DNA of 64,000 nt from Podarcis pityusensis (Eukaryota). This document shows, piece after piece, positions 5,441 to 25,946 of the stretch (the stretch's first letter is position 1; every line of letters starts with the position of its first letter). A program made the translations under genes and the position numbers. Below the pieces are notes generated by a model. It saw nothing but the letters and a program-made list of their open reading frames with translations, searched no databases and had not been told where the DNA came from. The stretch lies in the NCBI GenBank assembly GCA_964106645.2, contig OZ067040.1; one strand, written 5' to 3'.

Positions 5441-5697
5441 GCCAGTGTGGTGTAGTGGTTAAGAGCGGTAGTCTCGTAATCTGGGGAACCGGGTTCGCGT
5501 CTCCGCTCCTCCACATGCAGCTGCTGGGTAACCTTGGGCCAGTCACACTTCTCTGAAGTCTCTCAGCCCCACTCACCTCACAGAGTGTTTGTTGTGGGGG
5601 AGGAAGGGAAAGGAGAATGTTAGCCGCTTTGAGACTCCTTTGGGTAGTGATAAAGCGGGATATCAAATCCAAATTCTTCTTCCTCTTCTTCTTCTTC
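5441..5697 (+). mobile_element. tRNA-derived squamate SINE (Squam3-like), second copy
   Basis: colinear with 3702-3940; (CTT)n tail. Confidence 0.82.
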
Positions 5698-6279
5698 CCT
5701 CATATCCCCTCTGCCATCTGAATAATAGAGAGGTATAATAAAGGGCATATTGTAAGAATTGCTTCAAGCTGTGTAAAACACTTGGAGCATGTAGATTTCT
5801 ACATAGCACTTGTCCTTTAGTAGTTCTACTAAAGAGGGGCACTCCTTAGCCGACTGATTTTTAAATTTGTCAGTGTCTTCAAACACTAGCTTCTAGTTAG
5901 AGTAAATTTATGTAAAGCTGCCAAAAGGAAGGATTGCAAATATATTCAAAACTCAATAAAATAAGACAGTGAAACCATCATAACTACAGGAGGGCAAAGG
6001 TGTATATCAGTCTTCTCCCTTTGTTCTCTAATGTGCCATTCTGCTGCCAAATCTCCTAACTGTTGAATCAGCTGTTGGTCCCACACAGGCCAGGAATTCC
6101 CTGATTGGTGGCTGCTTCTATGTCTCTCACAGCCCCAGCCTTGGTGACAGATGCAGGCGGTGCTGGGGGCAGGGCAGGGAGCAAAGATGTTAACATGCTA
6201 TCCTCTCAGTTTTGTCTTAAGCATTGATTATATCAGACACTTAAAACTCCACTAAGTATTTGTTTGGCTTTTCAAACAG

Positions 6280-14229: not shown

Positions 14230-15560
<1,331 letters not shown>

Positions 15561-16685
15561 TAAAATACAAGGTAATGTATGAAGCTTGCAGGGTGACCTT
15601 GGGCCTGTCGCTGTCTCTCAGCCTAACCTACCTCACAGGGTTGTTGTGAAGAGAAATTGGAGAGGGAGGAGAGCTATATATGCCACTGTGTGTTGGAAGG
15701 AAGGTGAGATATAAATATAAATGTAATCAATAAACGCCTGCCAGTAGAACACTTGGGGTAGATAGCTGGTTTTACACTTCCCAACATGGTCCTATAGGAT
15801 AGCTACTAAATGATCTGAACTTTAAGTACCAGATACATGTGCACATGACTTTAAGCAACAACAAAAATATAGCAGTGATATTCTTTAGGAGAGCTGTAGG
15901 TGTGATTATCACTTTGCTCCCAAATGGAAGATGGGCAGCATTTTAAATAGTTCAGATGATACTGAATATTACACAAATATATTAATGTGGCATGACAGGT
16001 TTTTGAGTTGGTCTTTAATTTAGACTAGAATGTTATGAGTCCTTCAGATATACCTGCCTCACTGAAGAAAATTATGTCATTTGCTGTTGTATTATATTCC
16101 AGTATAGTTGCTACCAATATGTGTTTCTTGACAATTAGAGTTAAGTGATGAAAGTCCTGCTCCATCAGAATCTGTATTGAGCTTGATTAGTTTTTAAACA
16201 TTATTGACTGATGGCTAGTGCATGGAATTTAATAGGATAAAGGTGGTATTTGTTTTTGCTAGATCTGTGTTGCAATTTGTTGTTTAATTTGTTCCCTGGG
16301 TGCTTGTGCAGATAACCACTTTTTAAAACACAAGCTAGGTTTACTCTCTTACCTGAACATGGTTCATTTTATCTTGTGAGGTTGGTAACATTTTAACCCA
16401 TACATAATATCTAGGTGCACTGAACAATTATTACTCACAACTTTGAGAAGCTTGCTTTCTTTATCCTAGGGCAATATTCTAATGATTGGTCTACCAGCCC
16501 TAAAATACATGGGCTGTGCTTTATACACATCATGCACCAGTATTTTGAAGCTGAAATAATGCATAAGTGTGTTTGTGTAACTTGAGAACTTGCTTTCCTG
16601 ATTTTCTCAAAAAGATTCATTAGCCTCATTTATTTTTAAAGCAGGGGCATATTGAAGTTATTCTGAAGCTGTTGTCAAAAAATAT

Positions 16686-16979
16686 TGTTGTTGTTGTTTA
16701 GTTGTTTAGTCGTGTCCGACTCTTCATGACCCCATGGACCAGAGCACGCCAGGCACTCCTGTCCTCCACTGCCTCCCGCAGTTTGGTCAAACTCATGCTA
16801 GTAGCTTCGAGAACACTGTCCAACCATCTCGTCCTCTGTCGTCCCCTTCTCCTTGTGCCCTCCATCTTTCCCAATATCAGGGTCTTTTCCAGGGAGTCTT
16901 CTCTTCTCATGAGGGGGCCAAAGTATTGGAGCCTCAGTTTCAGGATCTGTCCTTCCAGTGAGCACTCAGGGCTGATTTC
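16686..16979 (-). mobile_element. Bov-B (RTE) LINE 3' end
   Basis: minus-strand peptide DSLEKTLILGKMEGTRRRGRQRTRWLD...AWRALVHGV; (AAC)n tail. Confidence 0.88.
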
Positions 16980-19900
16980 AAAAATGAGGATGTCAGGGAC
17001 TTGGTGGGAAAAAGAGGACTGAGGAAACTTGGTTCAGAGTGTAAAGTAGGGTTGCTGTATTTCAAAAAAGTAAGTTGTTGAGCTTACTTAGACAAACCCC
17101 AATGTTGTTGAGATTTTTTTTTTTACCAAAACGCCCAAAAAAAGTGATTTCTTGGTTTACATGCAGAAGATCTAGGACAAAACAGTGCCTTCCGGAAATT
17201 CCCCCCAGACGTCACTTCCACCTTTGAAATCCCAGTAATGTCCTGGACATATGGCAGCCCTAGATGAAGTGACTAGAGATTCTTGCAGTGCAATTCTTTA
17301 CATGCCTTTACTTATTTGCTGGTAATTTGGTGCATGGGATAGTATTAATTAGCTGCAGCTGATGCTGCATTGAAGCAGGCAAGCTGGACTGTGTATACTA
17401 AAGCTGTGATTCAGGGTGGGGAGAGAGAGCCAGGCATGCTGCAGGCAGAGGTCTTTCCAGTGATGGGCCAATGCTAGTAGGAGTCACCTCAGAGAATTAT
17501 GGTACCCCTTTGGTGTCTTCCCTTTGAAAAACCATTGAGGGCTAAGGACCTCACCCACATGAAAGTGACAGATAGATGATGGAAGGACCCTGAGGGAAAA
17601 GCAAGTGAGATTATGGGTCAGTAAATGAAAGCTCCCAGGTGAGAGGTGGTAGCAGCGTTCAAAATTCACTGGGCACATTTTGCACCTGGCTATCGGCCAG
17701 TTGTGACCAAGTGAAGATACCCAGGCGCCACCAGGATTGTGCCTGATGTTTCCACTATCTGGAGGTGCATGCCTGGGGATCCTTGGATCTTGACTGTTTT
17801 CACACACTAGCAACATATCCAGTAGAATTCTATCTGTTATATTTTATCTGCGCTATCAGAATGAATTTAAGGAACCAAAACATTGCATTGAAAAATACAA
17901 CTTTCAAGCCGTCTGGCCCCTAAAAGACAACTAGACATTCGGTTTTGGCAAATAAGATTTCTACCTCCCATTGATTTTTTTGAATCCACCTATATTAAAG
18001 TATAAAGCCAGATGTAACTTTTCAAATTTTCTAATCATGTTCTCTTCTAACTACCCTTACTGAACATTAATTCCTCCTTCTTGTCTTTTCAGAACAGCAC
18101 AATGGTTAATTCTACCCATAATTAACTTTAACTAATACTTGCAAACTCTCTTTTAACCTTGGTTTTATTTAAACTCTGTTAGCTTTAAACTAAAGTTAGT
18201 GTTAACATCAGTTTAGAGATAACTGGGTAATTAGGTGTTGAAGAGATTTCACTAGCCTGTTCCATACTCCCAATCCCCTAGCCATGGATAGGAGATCAGG
18301 GGTGTTACATTTGGAGTGGCTTTAGTGAGAACTTTATAGAACTACTTTAAGGTAAAAAGAAGTTTATTTTTAAAATGTTCACACATATTGACCATACTTG
18401 CTTTAAATTTTCTGTTACCGCAGTCACAGTTAAAAATTAATGTGGTTACAGTTTTGATAACAATAAATACTCGTAAGTTTTAAGGCCTTAATAGACGTTT
18501 GATTACATTACGTTTTGTTTGAGACAAAAAGATTACAGATTTATGCTGTTGTGTTTTGTGTGCCTGAAAGATTCATTTTTTTATTCCATTTATCACACTT
18601 TCTTCATTGAAGTATGGACCTGGGTTAAGCACTTAAGAACCAGTGATTTCAGTGTGATTTAAACAGGGTTTGGGTAATATCAATGTATTTTTAGTGCTTA
18701 ACCCTGGGTCAGTAACCCAGGGAGTATAAAATACAGTTTTCAAGTGCCCAATGCATTTTACTTGTTAAGTCGTATTCTAGTCTAAAATGTCCGCTAACTT
18801 CATTTTACTTGAGACATACATACTTCAGATTTCAGTGGACCTCTAGCTTTGTTATGCAGTGGGAACGATTACCTATTAGTTGTCTGGGGAAAATAGTTTT
18901 ACAATATCCTTATATGTGGTGGCATTTAGAACAAAGGTGACTTAAAGTTCAGACCAACATTTTTTGTTAGTCCTATTATTTGCGTACACAGTAATGTGTT
19001 TTATCCTGTAAAAAGAATGGACAGTATATCCAATATTAGTTATACTTAGAATATATTAATTGAAATAATTGGACTTAAGTTCTGAAATTCATTGACTTTG
19101 ATGGGTCTACTATGAGTATGGCATAATTGGATACCACCCAATATAAGTAAGGTTTAATTTCACTATTTTAGAGGTAGAATGACAGCTGTTAAACATATGC
19201 CCTCAAAATCCTTTAATAAAAGCTGAAATATGGAGTGCTAGACAGCATTTTTCTATCGACAAAATTTTAAAAAAGAAAACAGTGCCATGTTTCAGGTGGC
19301 TTAAAATGATAAAATACCCTTCTCCAACTTGGCACACTCTGAATGTTTGGGACTGCAACCCCCATCGTCTCCAGTGGACATCTGGAAGACACCAAGTTGA
19401 GGGGTGCTATAAGACTTGCACGAGCACAGCTTAGACTTCATGTTTAAATGTCACCTGTTGCATTTTATTAGTTTGACTGTATGCCTAGCAAATGTGTAAT
19501 TCTAATTTTATCTGTAATACAGTGGTCTTGATGACTAACATGTAGTGTTGCATTTAACTTTGCTGTTGAAATTGTTTTATAGAGTAACCTTGGTTCTCTT
19601 GGCTAGAAATTGTGAATTAAAAATGGCCCCCTCTACATTTAGAAATCTAAAATAAACTTGTTGGAGAGGCTAATACTTTCAGAAAGCAGCCTATGCTGAT
19701 ATCTGTATTCACATCTGTATCTATTTCATATATGTATTTAGGCTACTACCTGCTCTTCTGGCATGATTGCTTTTAACTGGCTACCATATTGCCATCACAA
19801 ACATATCCACGCAGTTGTCTCCTTTTATTACCAGAATGGTGCCATTCTGGCTAGAAACAGCAACAACAGTGTGATCCTGCTCGTATTTACTCAAGCATAA

Positions 19901-21410
19901 AATCTCACAGAGATCAAACTTACTGCCTAGAAATATGTTTAGCATTACAGCCTAATTCAGTGGGACTGAATTATAGATATTTTAAAAAGCAGAAAAATCA
20001 GGTCTTCATGTTTGGGCAAAGGGCCCAAATAAAGAAAAAACTCAGGAAGGGAGCAAGAAGTGAAACCTAAAACTGGTGTGAGCCTGTTTTAACTGTAAGT
20101 AGATTCCTATTGGAATAATCTTAGTGTAGATCTCTTAGTAGTGCACTACTTTGATTTCTTATTTGGCAGGCACTAAATGTTGCTTGCCTTGCCAGGTATA
20201 TAGGGCTAAATCTGTAAACATAGACTAAAATAAGATCTTAATGGAGGTGAGAGGAGATTTTAGCTTGCAGTGAAGTTTCAGAGACAGGTCCTTGAAACAT
20301 ATATTCACACAAAACATACAAATTCCTTACCAACAGTTGGATACCATTTTTGTATTAACTTTTGTTCTGCTGAAATTAATACTTCTTTGCCATGGGGTGC
20401 ATTCATGCATGCCTTTTTCTTTGTACTATTTATGTTTGTAAAACAGCATCAAGTCAATTTCAACTCCATGTGAGAATTACAGCAGTATTACAAATGGATG
20501 TTTTCTGTAACAATGAGTAAATTATTGAATTATTGAACGTACATAAACGCACGTGCTCCTGGGAAGGTTTATTGGGCCAAGTGTCACCAGATATGTATGC
20601 ACATGCATTATTACTTCCACACTTTAAACATTTGCTGTAGGCAGCACTTTTGTAAGACTAGTGTTTTCTGTAGTGGTTGTAATGTATAGCACTGCTTTTA
20701 GATAACAGGATTTCTATTACCTGGAAAGGAAATACTGTGCTTCAGTTTAGGAAATATTTGCTTCTTAAGCTAAAGCTAATTTCACCATTTCTAGAGGTCA
20801 TAATAGCACCTGTGACAAAGTACATCATGGACATTGTCCTCCTGGTTCTCTCGTTTGGGTAACATTACATGTTGGATAATAAAGGATAACCAATTATCAG
20901 TGCAAAACAGTCTACTTCAATGCAGTGAGATTGCATTAAAGACCAAGTACTGTACTGTAGTTTCTTCAAGCCTAAAACCATCAGGAACAAACAGTGTCTT
21001 TTAATATGTAGCAGTGACAATGTATCTTATTTTTCCTTAATTCCAGACATTTGAGGGGAGTTTGTATTGAAAACACAAAGTACACAATGTGCTTATTTCT
21101 TGCACATGGCAATCAGTACAGAGATTCCCCCTCCTCTTATGTGAGTTTCACCCTTAGGAAAAAGGTCTTCTTTAGTGTTTGGAATTAGAGGCTCTTTTCC
21201 TTAGGCTTCTAGCCATTCAGAGAGGCAACCTCTGGTTTGATTGCAGTGGAGAAGAAAGACACCTCTTCACCTTGTGCATTGTCTTCCTTGTAATAATGGG
21301 TTTAAACGCTGCCATTAGTAATTGGGAAAAGAGCAACATGTTGATGGAGTTTAGGGGTCTAGACATTTTGGCTGGGCTTGATAGCCAGTCATTCCCTTGG
21401 ATCCCAATTA

Positions 21411-23828
21411 CAGTGGTGCCCCGCAAGACGAATGCCTCACAAGATGAAAAACTCGCTAGACGAAAGGGTTTTTTGTTTTTTGAGCTGCTTCGCAAGACTA
21501 TTTTCCCTATGGGCTTGCTTCACAAGACGGAAACGTCTTGCAAGTTTGTTTCCTTTTTCTTAACACCGTTAATACAGTTGCGACTTGACTTCGAGGAGCA
21601 ACTCATAGAACGCGGTGTGGTAGCCTTTTTTGAGGTTTTTAAAGACTTTGGTGATTTTTGAAGCTTTTCCAAAACTTTCCCGACACCGTGCTTCGCAAGA
21701 CGAAAAAAATCGCAAGACGACAAAACTCGCGGAACGGACTTCCGGGGTGGCGCCATCAGCAATGGCGGACTCCCTCTGAACAGGAGGGACCAGCTCTGCG
21801 CGAAACGGGTCTTTTCCGCTGCGGCGAAGCGGGGACCCTTCTAGAAATCACAGGCGGATGAAGCCTGTGACCGTGGGACTCGGCGGGCACCCTTAGCGCC
21901 CCCCCCAACCCGCAAAGGAACCCACTAACGGGCTCCGAAGCGAAGAGGGGGAAGTGGCGTGGTGCTGTGAGTCAATTGCTTTTTCTGTGGAGCGAAGCCG
22001 CATAGCCGTTGCCGGAGAGCGCTGCCTTTTTCTTGGGACAATTTGGCATCTAAAATAATCACCCATGAGTACTTAAACACTGAACAATTGGACTTTAAAT
22101 AAGAACTGACGAGCAGAAAGGAATTGGACTTAAAAATTCACTTCAATTTGGTACTGAAACGGGAAGGTCTAAACAGGAAGTCAGCCTTCCGTTTCTTTGT
22201 AGTCAGAGTAAAGCAAAGACAACGTAAACTAGAGCTTAGAAAATTATTTTCAAAGGATTGGCTTTCATCATTTAAAATTGTTGAACCCCCCTTCGGTAGC
22301 AGGAGAAGAAGGGGGATCTTTTTTGGACTGTTTAAACCTGCAGAAGTGAGTCTAAAGCAAAGTAACTTTCCACCGTCCTGATCCTGGAGCGGGGTGTCAG
22401 AATTGACGTTTGAAGCTCATTGACCAGAGACAAATGTTTTTGACAGATAGCTAAAAGAAGAGTAACATTGTGATTTCATTGTTTCCTTTCGCATTTTAAA
22501 GGAACAAATATTGACAAAATATCTTAAAAAGAAACTTTGTTGCTATTATCCTTAAAAGAAAGAACAACCAGAAGCTTTCCCCCTAGAGGGGGACTGTGAG
22601 ATTGTAACTAATTCTAGGGAGCTTGCAGCTGCCACAGATTACAACCGTGGGAAAGGACTTGTGACCTTGTAGGACAATGCTTTCAGAAGCTCTGTTGTGT
22701 GCTCTCTGTAAAATAAATGCCCTATTGGATCAGTTAAGTCAGAAGACGGATTTGATGACTAATGCGGTCAGAACTTTTGAACAGGTAGTGGGAAACTATA
22801 TGGAGCCCACCCAGGAACTAAAACAGGAGTGTGCCATGACAGAACAGATGAGAGAAGAGGATGCTGCTGAATCTTGGGCGCCAGAAAGGGAGGGATTTTC
22901 GGCCCTGCAGGAATATGAGTCTTTGGATTTGACAAATGAACTTGGAAAAAACCAGATTTGGAAAGATAAAGTTTGGTTTGGTTTGAAAATGGGGGGTTGG
23001 ACTGACCCCCCCATGCAGGGATGTTTGGACTTTCCGAGTCTGGCAATGGGCCGTCAGATGTTTGGAGCTGTGGGGGCTCTCAATTTTGGAGGGAATCTGA
23101 AACATGTCTTCAAATACCACATGGAGTTTAGTCTGGACTATGGAAAAGGGGCTGATTTGTTGAAAAGGGTCAAAAACATTATCAAGCTGGAGTTCCCACG
23201 AGTGAAAGGAAAATATGAAGAAGAGCTGCAGAAGGGACATGGAAGAGACTTGAGGGCCTCGGATATAAGATCACCAGGTTAATGTGCTAGATCAATGGGA
23301 TAAAAAGGACTGACAAAACCCGGGACCAGGAGGAAGGGACGCTGGATGAAGATTGGATTGTTCTTATTTCTTTTTTTACCATCAGGATTGTTTTATAAAA
23401 TTGATGAATGTTAGAAAAATGTTGAAATGAAATTACTTGGCTCTTGTAAAAATGTTTAAAGAATTAGGTAAGAATGTTATGCTTATGAGAAGTTGGTAAA
23501 AATAAGATTTAAGTTTTAAGCTTTAAGGTTTTCTATAAGATAAGATGAAAATAGATTAAGGTAATGTAATGACAGAATACTATGAATTATGGAAAGGATT
23601 TGCTGCGAAAATTATTAATTAGGATACAAGAAAAGGGAGGAGGAGGAGGTCAAAGAAAGAAGGTAATGAAAGTGGAGAATTTGAGAATGATGGTTTTATT
23701 TTTTTTCTTTTATTTTTTTCTGTTTTGTCTTTTTCTTGTAATTTTTAAAAAATTTTCAATAAATATCATTTTAAAAAAAACAAAAAAACTCGCAGAACGA
23801 ATTAATTTCGTCTTGCGAGGCACCACTG
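21411..23828. mobile_element. Tigger-like MITE split by a 2-kb retroelement insertion
   Basis: TA-flanked TIRs CAGTGGTGCCCCGCAAGACGAA / TTCGTCTTGCGAGGCACCACTG. Confidence 0.85.
21737..23784 (+). mobile_element. L1-type non-autonomous retroelement (HAL1-like) with a 201-aa ORF at 22677-23282
   Basis: 15-bp TSD AAAACTCGC(G/A)GAACG; CpG-rich 5' end starting GACTTCCGG...ATGGCGG; AATAAA and A-rich tail. Confidence 0.7.
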
Positions 23829-24424
23829 TAAGTTAGTTGCACTTAGTTAAGTCGTGACTAATGTGCCCTGCTGGTTTTAGTTAACTGAGTTTGAATCCAG
23901 CCCATTGTTTGTAGTACCTAGTGATTTTTCACTCCCTCACTCCTAAGAGCAAAAGTCAAAGCAGTGTTTTTATACCAACTGTCCAGACAGTTGGTTTTGC
24001 GGACCACTTATTGTAGGTGTTGTTTATAGCAAGCAGCCCCTCTCTTACAGGCCATGGCACTGTTTGATCCTAACACAATATGCAGTGTTGCTTCACTCAA
24101 CACTTACTTAACTTACAGAATTAGCCAGCATTCAAAATTAAACCAGCATGAGTCTTTTTTGTGACTCAAGGGCGCCATCTAGTGACCATGTTCAGCCCAG
24201 CACATGGAGGGAGGAATGAGCCACATCGGCCCCAGTGGAGGCCGCTTGTTCCTCCCACCAGGCGCTGGCGGCAGAGGGAGTCCCCCCACCACCAGCACCC
24301 AGCTCACTGAGGGAGTCAGGAGCAGGCAAGTTCCACCCACGATACACCACCAGGTGAAGGCGCTATTGCGCTCTGGCTCTCAATCCGTTCCTGGGCAATG
24401 TATCAATACATTGCCCGGGCCTAG

Positions 24425-24667
24425 GTGTCATCTGCAAATTTGATGAGCATCACCTCAATTCTTTCATCTAAGTCATTTATAAAGACATTGAACAACAACA
24501 GGCCCACTTGGACAGAATCCTGCGGCACCAACACTTGTCACTTTCCCCCCAGGATGACAAGGAACCATTAAGTACTCTTTGGGTCCAGTCAGTCAACCAG
24601 CTACAAATCCACCTAACAGTTACCTTGTTCAACCCACATTTTACCAGCTTCCTCACAAGAATATCAT
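24425..24667 (-). mobile_element. CR1 LINE reverse-transcriptase fragment
   Basis: minus strand reads ...KFADDT and DILVRKLVKCGL..VTVRWICSWLTD. Confidence 0.8.
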
Positions 24668-24830
24668 TCCACGGGGAGGGTGCCACTACCGAGAAGGCCT
24701 TCTGCCTTTTTCACTGTAACTTAATTTCTCACAGTGAGGGAATCATCAGAAGGCCTTCGGAGCTGGACTTCCATGTCTGGGCTGAATGATGGGGATGGAG
24801 ATGCTCCTTCAGGTATACAGGGCCAAATCT
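24668..24830 (-). mobile_element. L2 LINE fragment
   Basis: homologous to 4515-4620. Confidence 0.55.
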
Positions 24831-25820
24831 GTTTAGAGTGTTCCCCTCAGTTAAGAGAAAACAGGAGTGAATGGTTACAAACAGCAAACAGAAGCATCTC
24901 ATCTCTTCCCCTTTGCATGTCTAGAGAGGGGTGGGAATGCACAAGCTCAGATTGCACCTGCTCATTCAATAAGATGGTTTGTCATTAGGTCTAAATCAGG
25001 CCATTCTGTGACTCCTCTTCTCGCTTGTCTCTCTCTTCTGCATAAAGTGAATGCACACAAAGTAAAAGATCAGCTAACATGTAGAAAGAGCTTAGGCTTG
25101 TTTCAGTTTGCACAGACCTTCAGTTTTGACATCCATGAGACTCAAAATGAAACTTGATAATTGAAGCTAAATATCTTTTAGACAATGGCCTTGTTAGCAT
25201 GTAATGATAAGTCAGACTTCTGGCGTATATTGGTTTATTGTGTAAACAAACAGCATGCTGGTGTACAGTACTCCTCCCTGGTGTAAGTAGAGTAAACAAA
25301 ACAAGAAGCTGGTGCTTCCTGTTATGTTTGAATCAGAGTTTGTGGTTTATTTTTTCCAAACAAGTACAGTGACTAGCCAACCTTGCTGATCATGGCTTCT
25401 CCAGATGATGATCCTTCATTCAAACATAGTTTGAAGCCAAGGCTTCCTGGTTTGTTTATCTGGTTTGCACCTGGAGAGGAGCCATCGGGCTGTATGCATC
25501 AGCACAGTGGCTTCCCAGTTTCACACCCCACACCCACACTCATTAACCACTTGAAAATTGCTGAGTGACAACATGGACCACTTAATGATTTGTAGCAATT
25601 GTACTGTGCCAGATGCTATATGATTTGCATAGAATTCAAATTGTAATGCAATAAAAGGAGATACAGGAGAATTTTTGTTGCTGCTACTGGCACAGTTGGA
25701 TCTCACCCAGTTTCATATTTTAAAAGTAAAGTATAAAAAAAATTTTGTGTTCAGTCTTGTAAGATGCTCTTGAGAACTTTTGTATGATATGCACATTTGT
25801 TTATTTTATGTTGAATGTAG

Positions 25821-25946
25821 GTTCAGATGCAAGTCCACCCTAAGCTGTCATCTACTGAAGATGCCTTGCAGTATGTTGAGGAGTTAATACTGCAGTTGCT
25901 GAACATGTTATGCCAAGCTCAGCCAAGAAGCTTCCTGGATGTAGAG
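25821..25946 (+). CDS. SOS1: SOS1 exon 2 (histone-fold)
   Basis: 126 nt, AG/GT; [42 protein letters not shown]. Confidence 0.96.

Follow-up and report, generated by a model that had tools for sequence, protein, structure and literature searches.

The window analysed here is a 64,000-nt stretch of Podarcis pityusensis DNA (GCA_964106645.2, contig OZ067040.1; one strand), which contains exons 1 and 2 of SOS1. Exon 2 starts at 25821 on the + strand and matches human SOS1 at E 4e-16; exon 1, located through a motif, presumably has its ATG at 15078, also on the + strand. Since both exons are on the + strand, the insert of 2,048 bp found at 21737-23784, inside a MITE of intron 1, lies there in sense, as had been proposed. 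The features are as follows.

15165..25820, + strand: SOS1 intron 1, which carries the element in sense.
21411..23828, no strand assigned: host MITE with 25-nt inverted arms (96% complementary), split by the insert.
21722..21736, + strand: 5' TSD copy, 15 bp, AAAACTCGCGGAACG.
21737..22676, + strand: 5'UTR from a clade-1 L1, starting with GACTTCCGG at 21737 and with ATGGCGG at 21762.
22677..23282, + strand: single ORF of 201 aa, a degenerate ORF1p, whose start is the internal Met ~40 of the parent.
22680..22802, + strand: N-terminal helix or coiled coil, residues 2-42 (AF2 pLDDT 78-91; omega 0.46; HSBP1 coil match).
23093..23094, + strand: site of the RRM deletion, ~40 residues, placed by protein alignment (occupancy 0.02 in 13 proteins) and by the parent model.
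23229..23282, + strand: conserved C-terminal peptide QKGHGRDLRASDIRSPG with its stop; the ORF1p CTD helix ends in its opening part, and its final ~10 residues fall at the ORF1/ORF2 deletion junction.
23283..23476, + strand: ORF2 remnant, the last ~35 codons, now non-coding (65-78% DNA identity to the ORF2 ends of L277, L282 and L234).
23477..23784, + strand: L1-derived 3'UTR with a purine tract at ~23631-23649, a T-rich tract, AATAAA at 23758-23763 and an A tail.
23785..23799, + strand: 3' TSD copy, 15 bp, AAAACTCGCAGAACG.

The inverted arms of the MITE occupy 21408-21432 and 23807-23831 and its TA flanks 21409-21410 and 23829-23830. Without the insert the MITE measures 361 bp, arms counted, and a 95% copy is present elsewhere (L118); we take it to be Tc1/mariner/pogo-like. 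The two TSD copies differ by a single G>A transition, at a CpG. An empty form also appears in contigs from other runs, which join 21736 to 23800 with one TSD copy; these contigs probably derive from other copies of the MITE. As a locus, the SOS1 insertion is one ordinary insertion. Everything that the preliminary description had read at the ends and in the body of the insert is in the sequence: the nesting in a MITE, the 15-bp TSD with one mismatch, the CpG-rich 5' end with its ATGGCGG, the long leader, the ATG-initiated ORF of 201 aa, the T-rich tract, the AATAAA and the A tail. A second AATAAA, at 22712-22717 inside the ORF, could be a further cause of premature polyadenylation within this SOS1 intron.

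The leader is 940 nt long and holds four upstream ATGs. The first 350 nt of the element have a GC content of 0.58 and a CpG o/e of 0.84, and the 5'UTR is likely an internal Pol II promoter. The 201-aa frame is the only + strand ATG ORF of more than 100 aa in the element, and all that remains of ORF2 is its last ~35 codons, out of frame (RDQEEGTLDEDW is encoded in another frame at 23309-23356); the lack of endonuclease and RT reported earlier is thus borne out.

The element is multicopy and therefore not a chance structure. Scoring 40 of 6,824 first-look candidates gave 40 near-full-length places, the window's own copy and 39 others at 92-97%, so that the single-copy status named in the preliminary description as fatal to its reading was not found. 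An exact 29-nt pattern for the 5' end of the window's group occurs 742 times in the genome, its reversed control never. Exact TSDs of 10-20 bp flank 22 of 30 copies, and half of these (11/22) have extra G-containing bases at the 5' junction; an extra 5' G is expected when copying runs through to the end of a capped RNA. Of the 30 copies, 22 have an intact ORF, 7 a stop within it and 1 a frameshift. For equal substitution rates, a single indel event was counted in the 605 ORF columns vs 41 in 841 and 30 in 404 UTR columns, in copies that were picked by DNA likeness and with shared events counted per copy. Among the same 30 copies singleton changes are neutral in ratio and shared changes mildly purifying. 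The preservation of the ORF, on which the preliminary description had made its reading depend, is thus observed.

A genome search with distant relatives brought to light at least a dozen lineages, by visual count. Those with both ends located have common 5' motifs and TSDs; the leader usually measures 800-970 nt, the ORF encodes ~200 aa, and the usual length of the 3'UTR is 420-640 nt. Their proteins are 176-224 aa long, with pairwise identities of 16-96% (median 38%, 20 representatives). The youngest lineage counts 12 copies only 0.4-0.9% apart (~0.6%). The end of the ORF (last nine codons plus stop), searched as a degenerate pattern, gave 4,314 hits in the genome and none in the control. Protein searches matched only hypothetical proteins of Podarcis lilfordi and unnamed contigs. 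The element group is real, multicopy and recently active.

Some arrangements of copies deserve mention. At two loci, L213 (G000:C20:15589300-15594600) and L214 (G000:C17:492200-497200), a younger copy sits antisense inside an older one, at ~340-348; since the two loci show 95% similarity over the junction, a single event that was later copied or moved whole is more likely than a hotspot. A sister-lineage copy (L043) has two related AATAAA/A-tail ends ~260 nt apart, which a short nested insertion or an internal duplication would probably explain. Copies or fragments of the group also occur in or beside 5 of 40 L1 loci selected on other grounds (L125, L155, L157, L161 and L164).

The 5' consensus of Anolis clade-1 L1s is given as GACTTCCGGTGN8ATGGCG in the section of PMC5381506 drawn on here, and a 5'-end pattern search based on it led to the parent L1 lineage. 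The search gave full-length L1s with TSDs and a 1245-aa ORF2 that belong to a lineage distinct from that of the L1s first compared (see below) and rich in near-identical copies. L234, L235 and L282 are 6.0-6.2-kb L1s of this kind, with TSDs and 1245-aa ORF2s, and have their 5'UTR in common with the element. The identity of the element's 5'UTR is 73-76% over the first ~310-335 nt with L234 and L277, and 66% over 604 nt with L276. Aligned on L234, the family DNA profile covers positions 1-1554 (E 1e-111), 1681-1880 and 5598-6123 (E 3e-29). The direct parent lineage is this lizard clade-1 L1 of the same genome (L234/L235/L267-L282), and the element consists of an L1 5'UTR, a shortened ORF1, the out-of-frame last ~35 codons of ORF2 and a 3'UTR, i.e. 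it is the product of an internal deletion of two-thirds of an L1. In the least-changed lineage the stop codon stems from the GTG ATG of ORF2, read in another frame.

The first comparisons with L1s had been negative because those L1s belong to other lineages: the 40 L1 loci obtained by RT and ORF1 searches have only their first nine bases in common with the element, with no extended 5'UTR match, and HHalign finds no homology between their ORF1p and the family (0.2-1.0%). Pfam PF02994 had no match in the genome, nor in its controls. In a tree of 5'UTRs the element lineages nest among lizard L1s of the same genome; two label changes are needed, and a single clade is not rejected (p-AU 0.39). The common RRM deletion and junction suggest that the lineages may have a single origin.

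Other deleted elements were met in the same genome. L285 (G000:C6:9592400-9599400), from the parent lineage, is an L1 of 3.1 kb flanked by a 17-bp TSD; its ORF1 has 329 aa and its ORF2 is reduced to the last 214 codons, a separate half-L1-type deletion. L223 (G000:C2:2998100-3007099), 1.4 kb long and flanked by a 15-bp TSD, contains no ORF of 120 aa; its L1-type 5' end is related to those of L216-L218, L230 and the divergent L1 L222 (ORF2 30% identical to that of L115), and the L223 type is possibly another non-autonomous family. At five loci (L219, L220, L227, L232 and L233) the 5' end is of the form GACTTCCGGT...ATGGCG, and neither an ORF of 120 aa nor a TSD was found within 8 kb. At L126, L129 and L225, LTR-retroelement-like frames, presumably copia-like, interrupt or flank L1 copies.

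The ORF had been called an orphan, and with the 201-aa protein alone neither a Pfam family at E<0.2 nor a PDB sequence at E<1 was found. This reading, in keeping with Pfam, PDB, Atlas and large protein searches that named no family, is ruled out by homology to ORF1p. The family protein profile matches that of seven parent ORF1p with an HHalign probability of 97.9% (E 4e-13), and Foldseek relates the model of the parent protein to human ORF1p (E 2e-11). Because the ORF derives from ORF1p, the word orphan in the earlier title was wrong, and the highly diverged ORF1-like protein proposed beside it was right. Clear scores on the ORF1p profile are obtained for only 5 of 22 family proteins. The window protein by itself scores 3.9 bits, within the range of its shuffles (maximum 7.2 in 440 shuffles); its homology to ORF1p therefore rests on the DNA, on BLASTP (E 3e-4) and on an L148-type bridge (42%). 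A DUF4806/BEN lead from the Atlas was dropped at a score of 0.88, below its own bar.

The protein begins at what is an internal Met (~40) in the parent. It has no basic N-terminal region, and its coil, though shorter, still aligns to the parental one. All 13 aligned proteins are without parent residues ~205-244 (occupancy 0.02), which in the parent model form a strand (210-217), a helix (220-232) and the start of the last RRM strand (243-246). The protein has the N-terminal coiled coil (helix 2-42) of a canonical L1 ORF1p but not its complete RRM, and does not qualify as one. Most lineages also lack 17-25 residues of the CTD. AF2 on the window protein, from a shallow alignment of 22 sequences and too poor for a fold search, is confident for helix 2-42 only, with pLDDT below 50 over residues 46-191. 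The HSBP1 coil is matched by 3 of 22 family proteins. The preliminary description could not reveal the loss of half the RRM or the new C-terminal peptide, where conservation is highest.

Selection on the ORF, which it had suggested measuring among copies, was detected. Over 20 representatives omega is 0.62 (2dlnL ~58 against omega 1), with 0.46 for the coil, 0.69 and 0.77 for the middle and 0.29 for the last 12 codons, terminal branches adding neutral change everywhere. The coil and the last 12-17 codons are under purifying selection, and the middle is near-neutral. Between lineages, 30 of 92 ORF gaps are multiples of three vs 81 of 430 UTR gaps (p 0.005), a result of unreliable alignments that we did not use.

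Conservation is inverted relative to the parent ORF1p: the RRM and CTD have diverged (identity 0.63-0.70 in 7 parents vs 0.31-0.36 in 13 family proteins), and the tail at the junction is kept (0.82 in the 13 family proteins vs 0.34 in the 7 parents, after the last CTD helix). Amino-acid identity is 0.70 in the last 17 columns and at most 0.49 in every other 17-column window. The consensus of the tail, at the deletion junction, is L-R/K-A-S-D-x-x-x-P-G-stop; in the youngest lineage the end reads RDLKASDVRNPG. All 27 of 27 intact proteins have the S, D, P and G unchanged and a terminal Pro-Gly, a tally that leaves out 5 of 40 loci with damaged ends (L061, L063, L064, L071 and L134). The motif is also found in three elements picked by their 5' end only (L229, L275 and L280); hence it is not an artefact of the way homologues were found. 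The conserved stretch, ~15 residues long, invariably runs up to the stop, with G at -15, L at -10 and ASD at -8 to -6; positions -3 to -5 are variable. A likeness to bacterial RAPP-type peptides was dropped, R at -4 not being fixed (22/27).

Identity at codon positions 1, 2 and 3 is 0.90, 0.87 and 0.63 in the last 12 codons vs 0.63, 0.62 and 0.60 in the middle. The tree length of the last 17 codons is 4.9 vs 13.4, so that by rough arithmetic the synonymous rate is also somewhat lower, which leaves room for a role of the RNA.

How would such an element propagate? From its anatomy, Pol II would almost certainly transcribe it from the internal promoter, and L1 ORF2p would copy it in trans by TPRT. 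The coil would, with somewhat better than even odds, co-assemble with the ORF1p of the helper. A predicted complex of the coil with ORF1p scores 0.36 vs 0.00 for the best control, the runs agreeing in at least 88% of contacts with a partner pLDDT of at least 63; of 78 solved complexes 5 passed with a score of 0.60 or less, as did each of the 4 mismatches that passed among 180. The ORF1p was that of L115, from a non-parental L1 family, the controls had not been selected for being coiled coils, and one of the three runs gave 0.15. This model weakly supports docking of the coil on helper ORF1p. According to the portion of PMC5786205 consulted, ORF1-only elements are thought to multimerise with helper proteins.

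A parasite would be expected to retain an open frame only where the encoded protein benefits its own RNA above that of others. ORF1p favours its own RNA by binding it while being made. Half of the RRM being lost, the ribosome is the simplest remaining link between protein and RNA, and this favours a tether. On the strength of the tail's sequence we tentatively suggest that it may act inside the ribosome exit tunnel and delay release at the stop codon, so that the nascent chain would stay joined to its own mRNA and pull that RNA into L1 particles. Such a tether would explain a preference for the element's own RNA despite a broken RNA-binding domain, which selection on a non-autonomous element requires. 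Points in its favour are that the conserved stretch has a suitable length, a fixed terminal position and a 2A likeness, together with the coil-docking fold and the precedent of Alu; against it are the failed 2A core, a hairpin with few breaks, the Pro-Gly degron consensus and the four upstream ATGs of the leader. Our main reading is that the element is a full-length copy of a HAL1-like half-L1 without RT or endonuclease, whose remodelled ORF1p would serve as a tether and not as an RNA chaperone; we put the probability of this whole chain at about 0.4. A bolder form, in which the parasite would have rebuilt ORF1p as a ribosome tether with a 2A-like arrest peptide born at the junction, a protein counterpart of the Alu hijack that would drive an ongoing radiation of a dozen lineages, is rather doubtful.

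In the portion of PMC12846837 available to us, StopGo/2A peptides grip the exit tunnel and show an upstream (R/K)DL, then D(V/I)...PG, with (D/G/C/N)(V/I)ExNPGP as core. The tail resembles them by an upstream (R/K)DL, by D(V/I) followed by a terminal PG and by a similar conserved length; it differs in having no E, being one residue short, having an N that is not fixed and a stop in place of the last P, and it fails the core (PMC12846837, same portion). An F2A-PG-stop construct described there was trapped only with inactive eRF1; a 2A-like end thus need not stall. From the excerpt of PMC11485995 used here, Alu reaches ORF2p via stalled ribosomes. If the proposed tether holds, the lizard element and Alu/SRP9-14 would both be cases of a non-autonomous RNA that captures ORF2p at ribosomes; Alu does so with an RNA fold and host proteins, the lizard element would do so with a nascent peptide that it encodes itself (PMC11485995, same excerpt). 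We found no stalling-peptide model for a non-autonomous element in the open-journal literature.

The tail could instead be a short binding motif that acts after release, on the element's own RNA, ORF2p or a host factor, making the protein a coil-linker-peptide adaptor in mixed L1 particles with no stall. The codon periodicity and the omega of the last codons fit this equally well, and the tail, which extends the last ORF1p CTD helix, has a mildly basic character, with a mean net charge of +1.4. Once released, a protein whose RRM is broken nevertheless has no obvious preference for its own RNA; ORF-less copies should then do equally well, yet the frame is kept, and the motif is fixed at the stop codon in all 27 intact proteins. 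We consider this unlikely.

The room left for RNA brings in a reading by which a hairpin (GCCUCGG...CCAGGY, over the last nine codons) is what is conserved; the peptide would then be incidental, and the open ORF would serve only the translation and stability of the RNA. The consensus has 7 pairs, and across 15 sequences 17 one-sided changes keep the pairing against 3 that break it; the tail Ser codon is TCG in 18 of 20, and the middle of the ORF is near neutral. But none of the 7 pairs shows a compensatory change, the fold is weak (-6.4 kcal/mol), third codon positions vary at background rate while unpaired first and second positions are fixed, and the coil is under purifying selection too. 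This makes the hairpin distinctly unlikely as the target of selection.

A degron at the terminal Pro-Gly, which would make the protein short-lived or drag helper ORF1p to the proteasome, seems improbable. The end of all 27 intact proteins conforms to the putative C-degron consensus of KLHDC10 (C-terminal W/A/P-G), Trp/Ala/Pro-Gly being the CRL2-KLHDC10 consensus degron in the passages of PMC11568203 that we used. The pocket of the related KLHDC3, by the same passages, takes about six residues, and conservation reaches ~15 residues upstream; moreover, positions -3 to -5 are the variable ones. That the protein is an ordinary HAL1 product, still an RNA chaperone despite its divergence, is very improbable: it is colinear with ORF1p along its whole length, and mammalian HAL1s keep ORF1 open for long times (PMC3627910, in the part consulted), but every aligned lineage has lost half the RRM, the basic N-terminal region is gone, most have lost CTD residues, and the poorly modelled stretch (46-191, from the shallow alignment) covers most of the protein.

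The tether thus remains our preferred reading, for an element whose place among known families is clearer. Mammalian HAL1 (half-L1) elements are reportedly due to Bao & Jurka 2010. As defined in the portions of PMC5753468, PMC3627910 and PMC5786205 drawn on here, they are like the lizard element non-autonomous L1 derivatives with a 5'UTR, an ORF derived from ORF1 only and an L1 3' end, an open ORF and TPRT hallmarks. The lizard family has the internal L1 deletion with both ends kept, a single ORF homologous to ORF1p, no functional ORF2, its own TPRT-amplified family with TSD and poly(A), and an ORF kept under selection; the proposal of a HAL1-like parasite of a lizard L1 is borne out by its parent lineage and by the L1 origin of its 5'UTR, ORF and 3' end. 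It differs from the mammalian elements, as far as these partial sources go, by its lacertid host and lizard clade-1 L1 origin, by a protein without the N-terminal region and half the RRM, by its new conserved tail, and by a dozen or more coexisting lineages, some very young. An origin from a mammalian L1 is contradicted by the nesting of its 5'UTRs among the lizard L1s of this genome, in a tree of lizard L1s alone.

With the lizard clade-1 L1s of Boissinot & Sookdeo 2016 (PMC5381506, the sections used) the element has in common the GACTTCCGG...ATGGCG 5' end and a long 5'UTR; it departs from them by the loss of ORF2, save the out-of-frame end, and by the inverted conservation of ORF1p. A term search of that paper for HAL1 or non-autonomous elements gave no hits. 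The ORF1-only HeT-A and Ag-Sponge (Jockey and CR1 derivatives) likewise have one ORF1-type protein thought to multimerise with the helper's, in other clades and hosts, and the consulted part of PMC5786205 mentions no degenerate protein with a new tail. In the literature covered, with subscription journals, Repbase Reports and Repbase/Dfam outside its scope, there is no lizard HAL1 and no HAL1-type radiation outside mammals; lizard HAL1-like families may already be deposited in Repbase or Dfam.

ORFs of the element group are being filed as hypothetical lizard proteins (P0001, P0004). Their evolution can be read as a deletion scan, in which the RRM is dispensable and the coil and the 12-17-residue tail are not. 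As one genome holds both intact L1s of parental type and parasite lineages with as little as 0.6% divergence, the proposal is directly testable in a cell assay. It bears on why ORF1-only parasites keep their ORF and on how a non-autonomous RNA bypasses the cis preference of L1; if the tail stalls ribosomes, it would be a novel arrest peptide of eukaryotes, with an origin traceable to a deletion junction.
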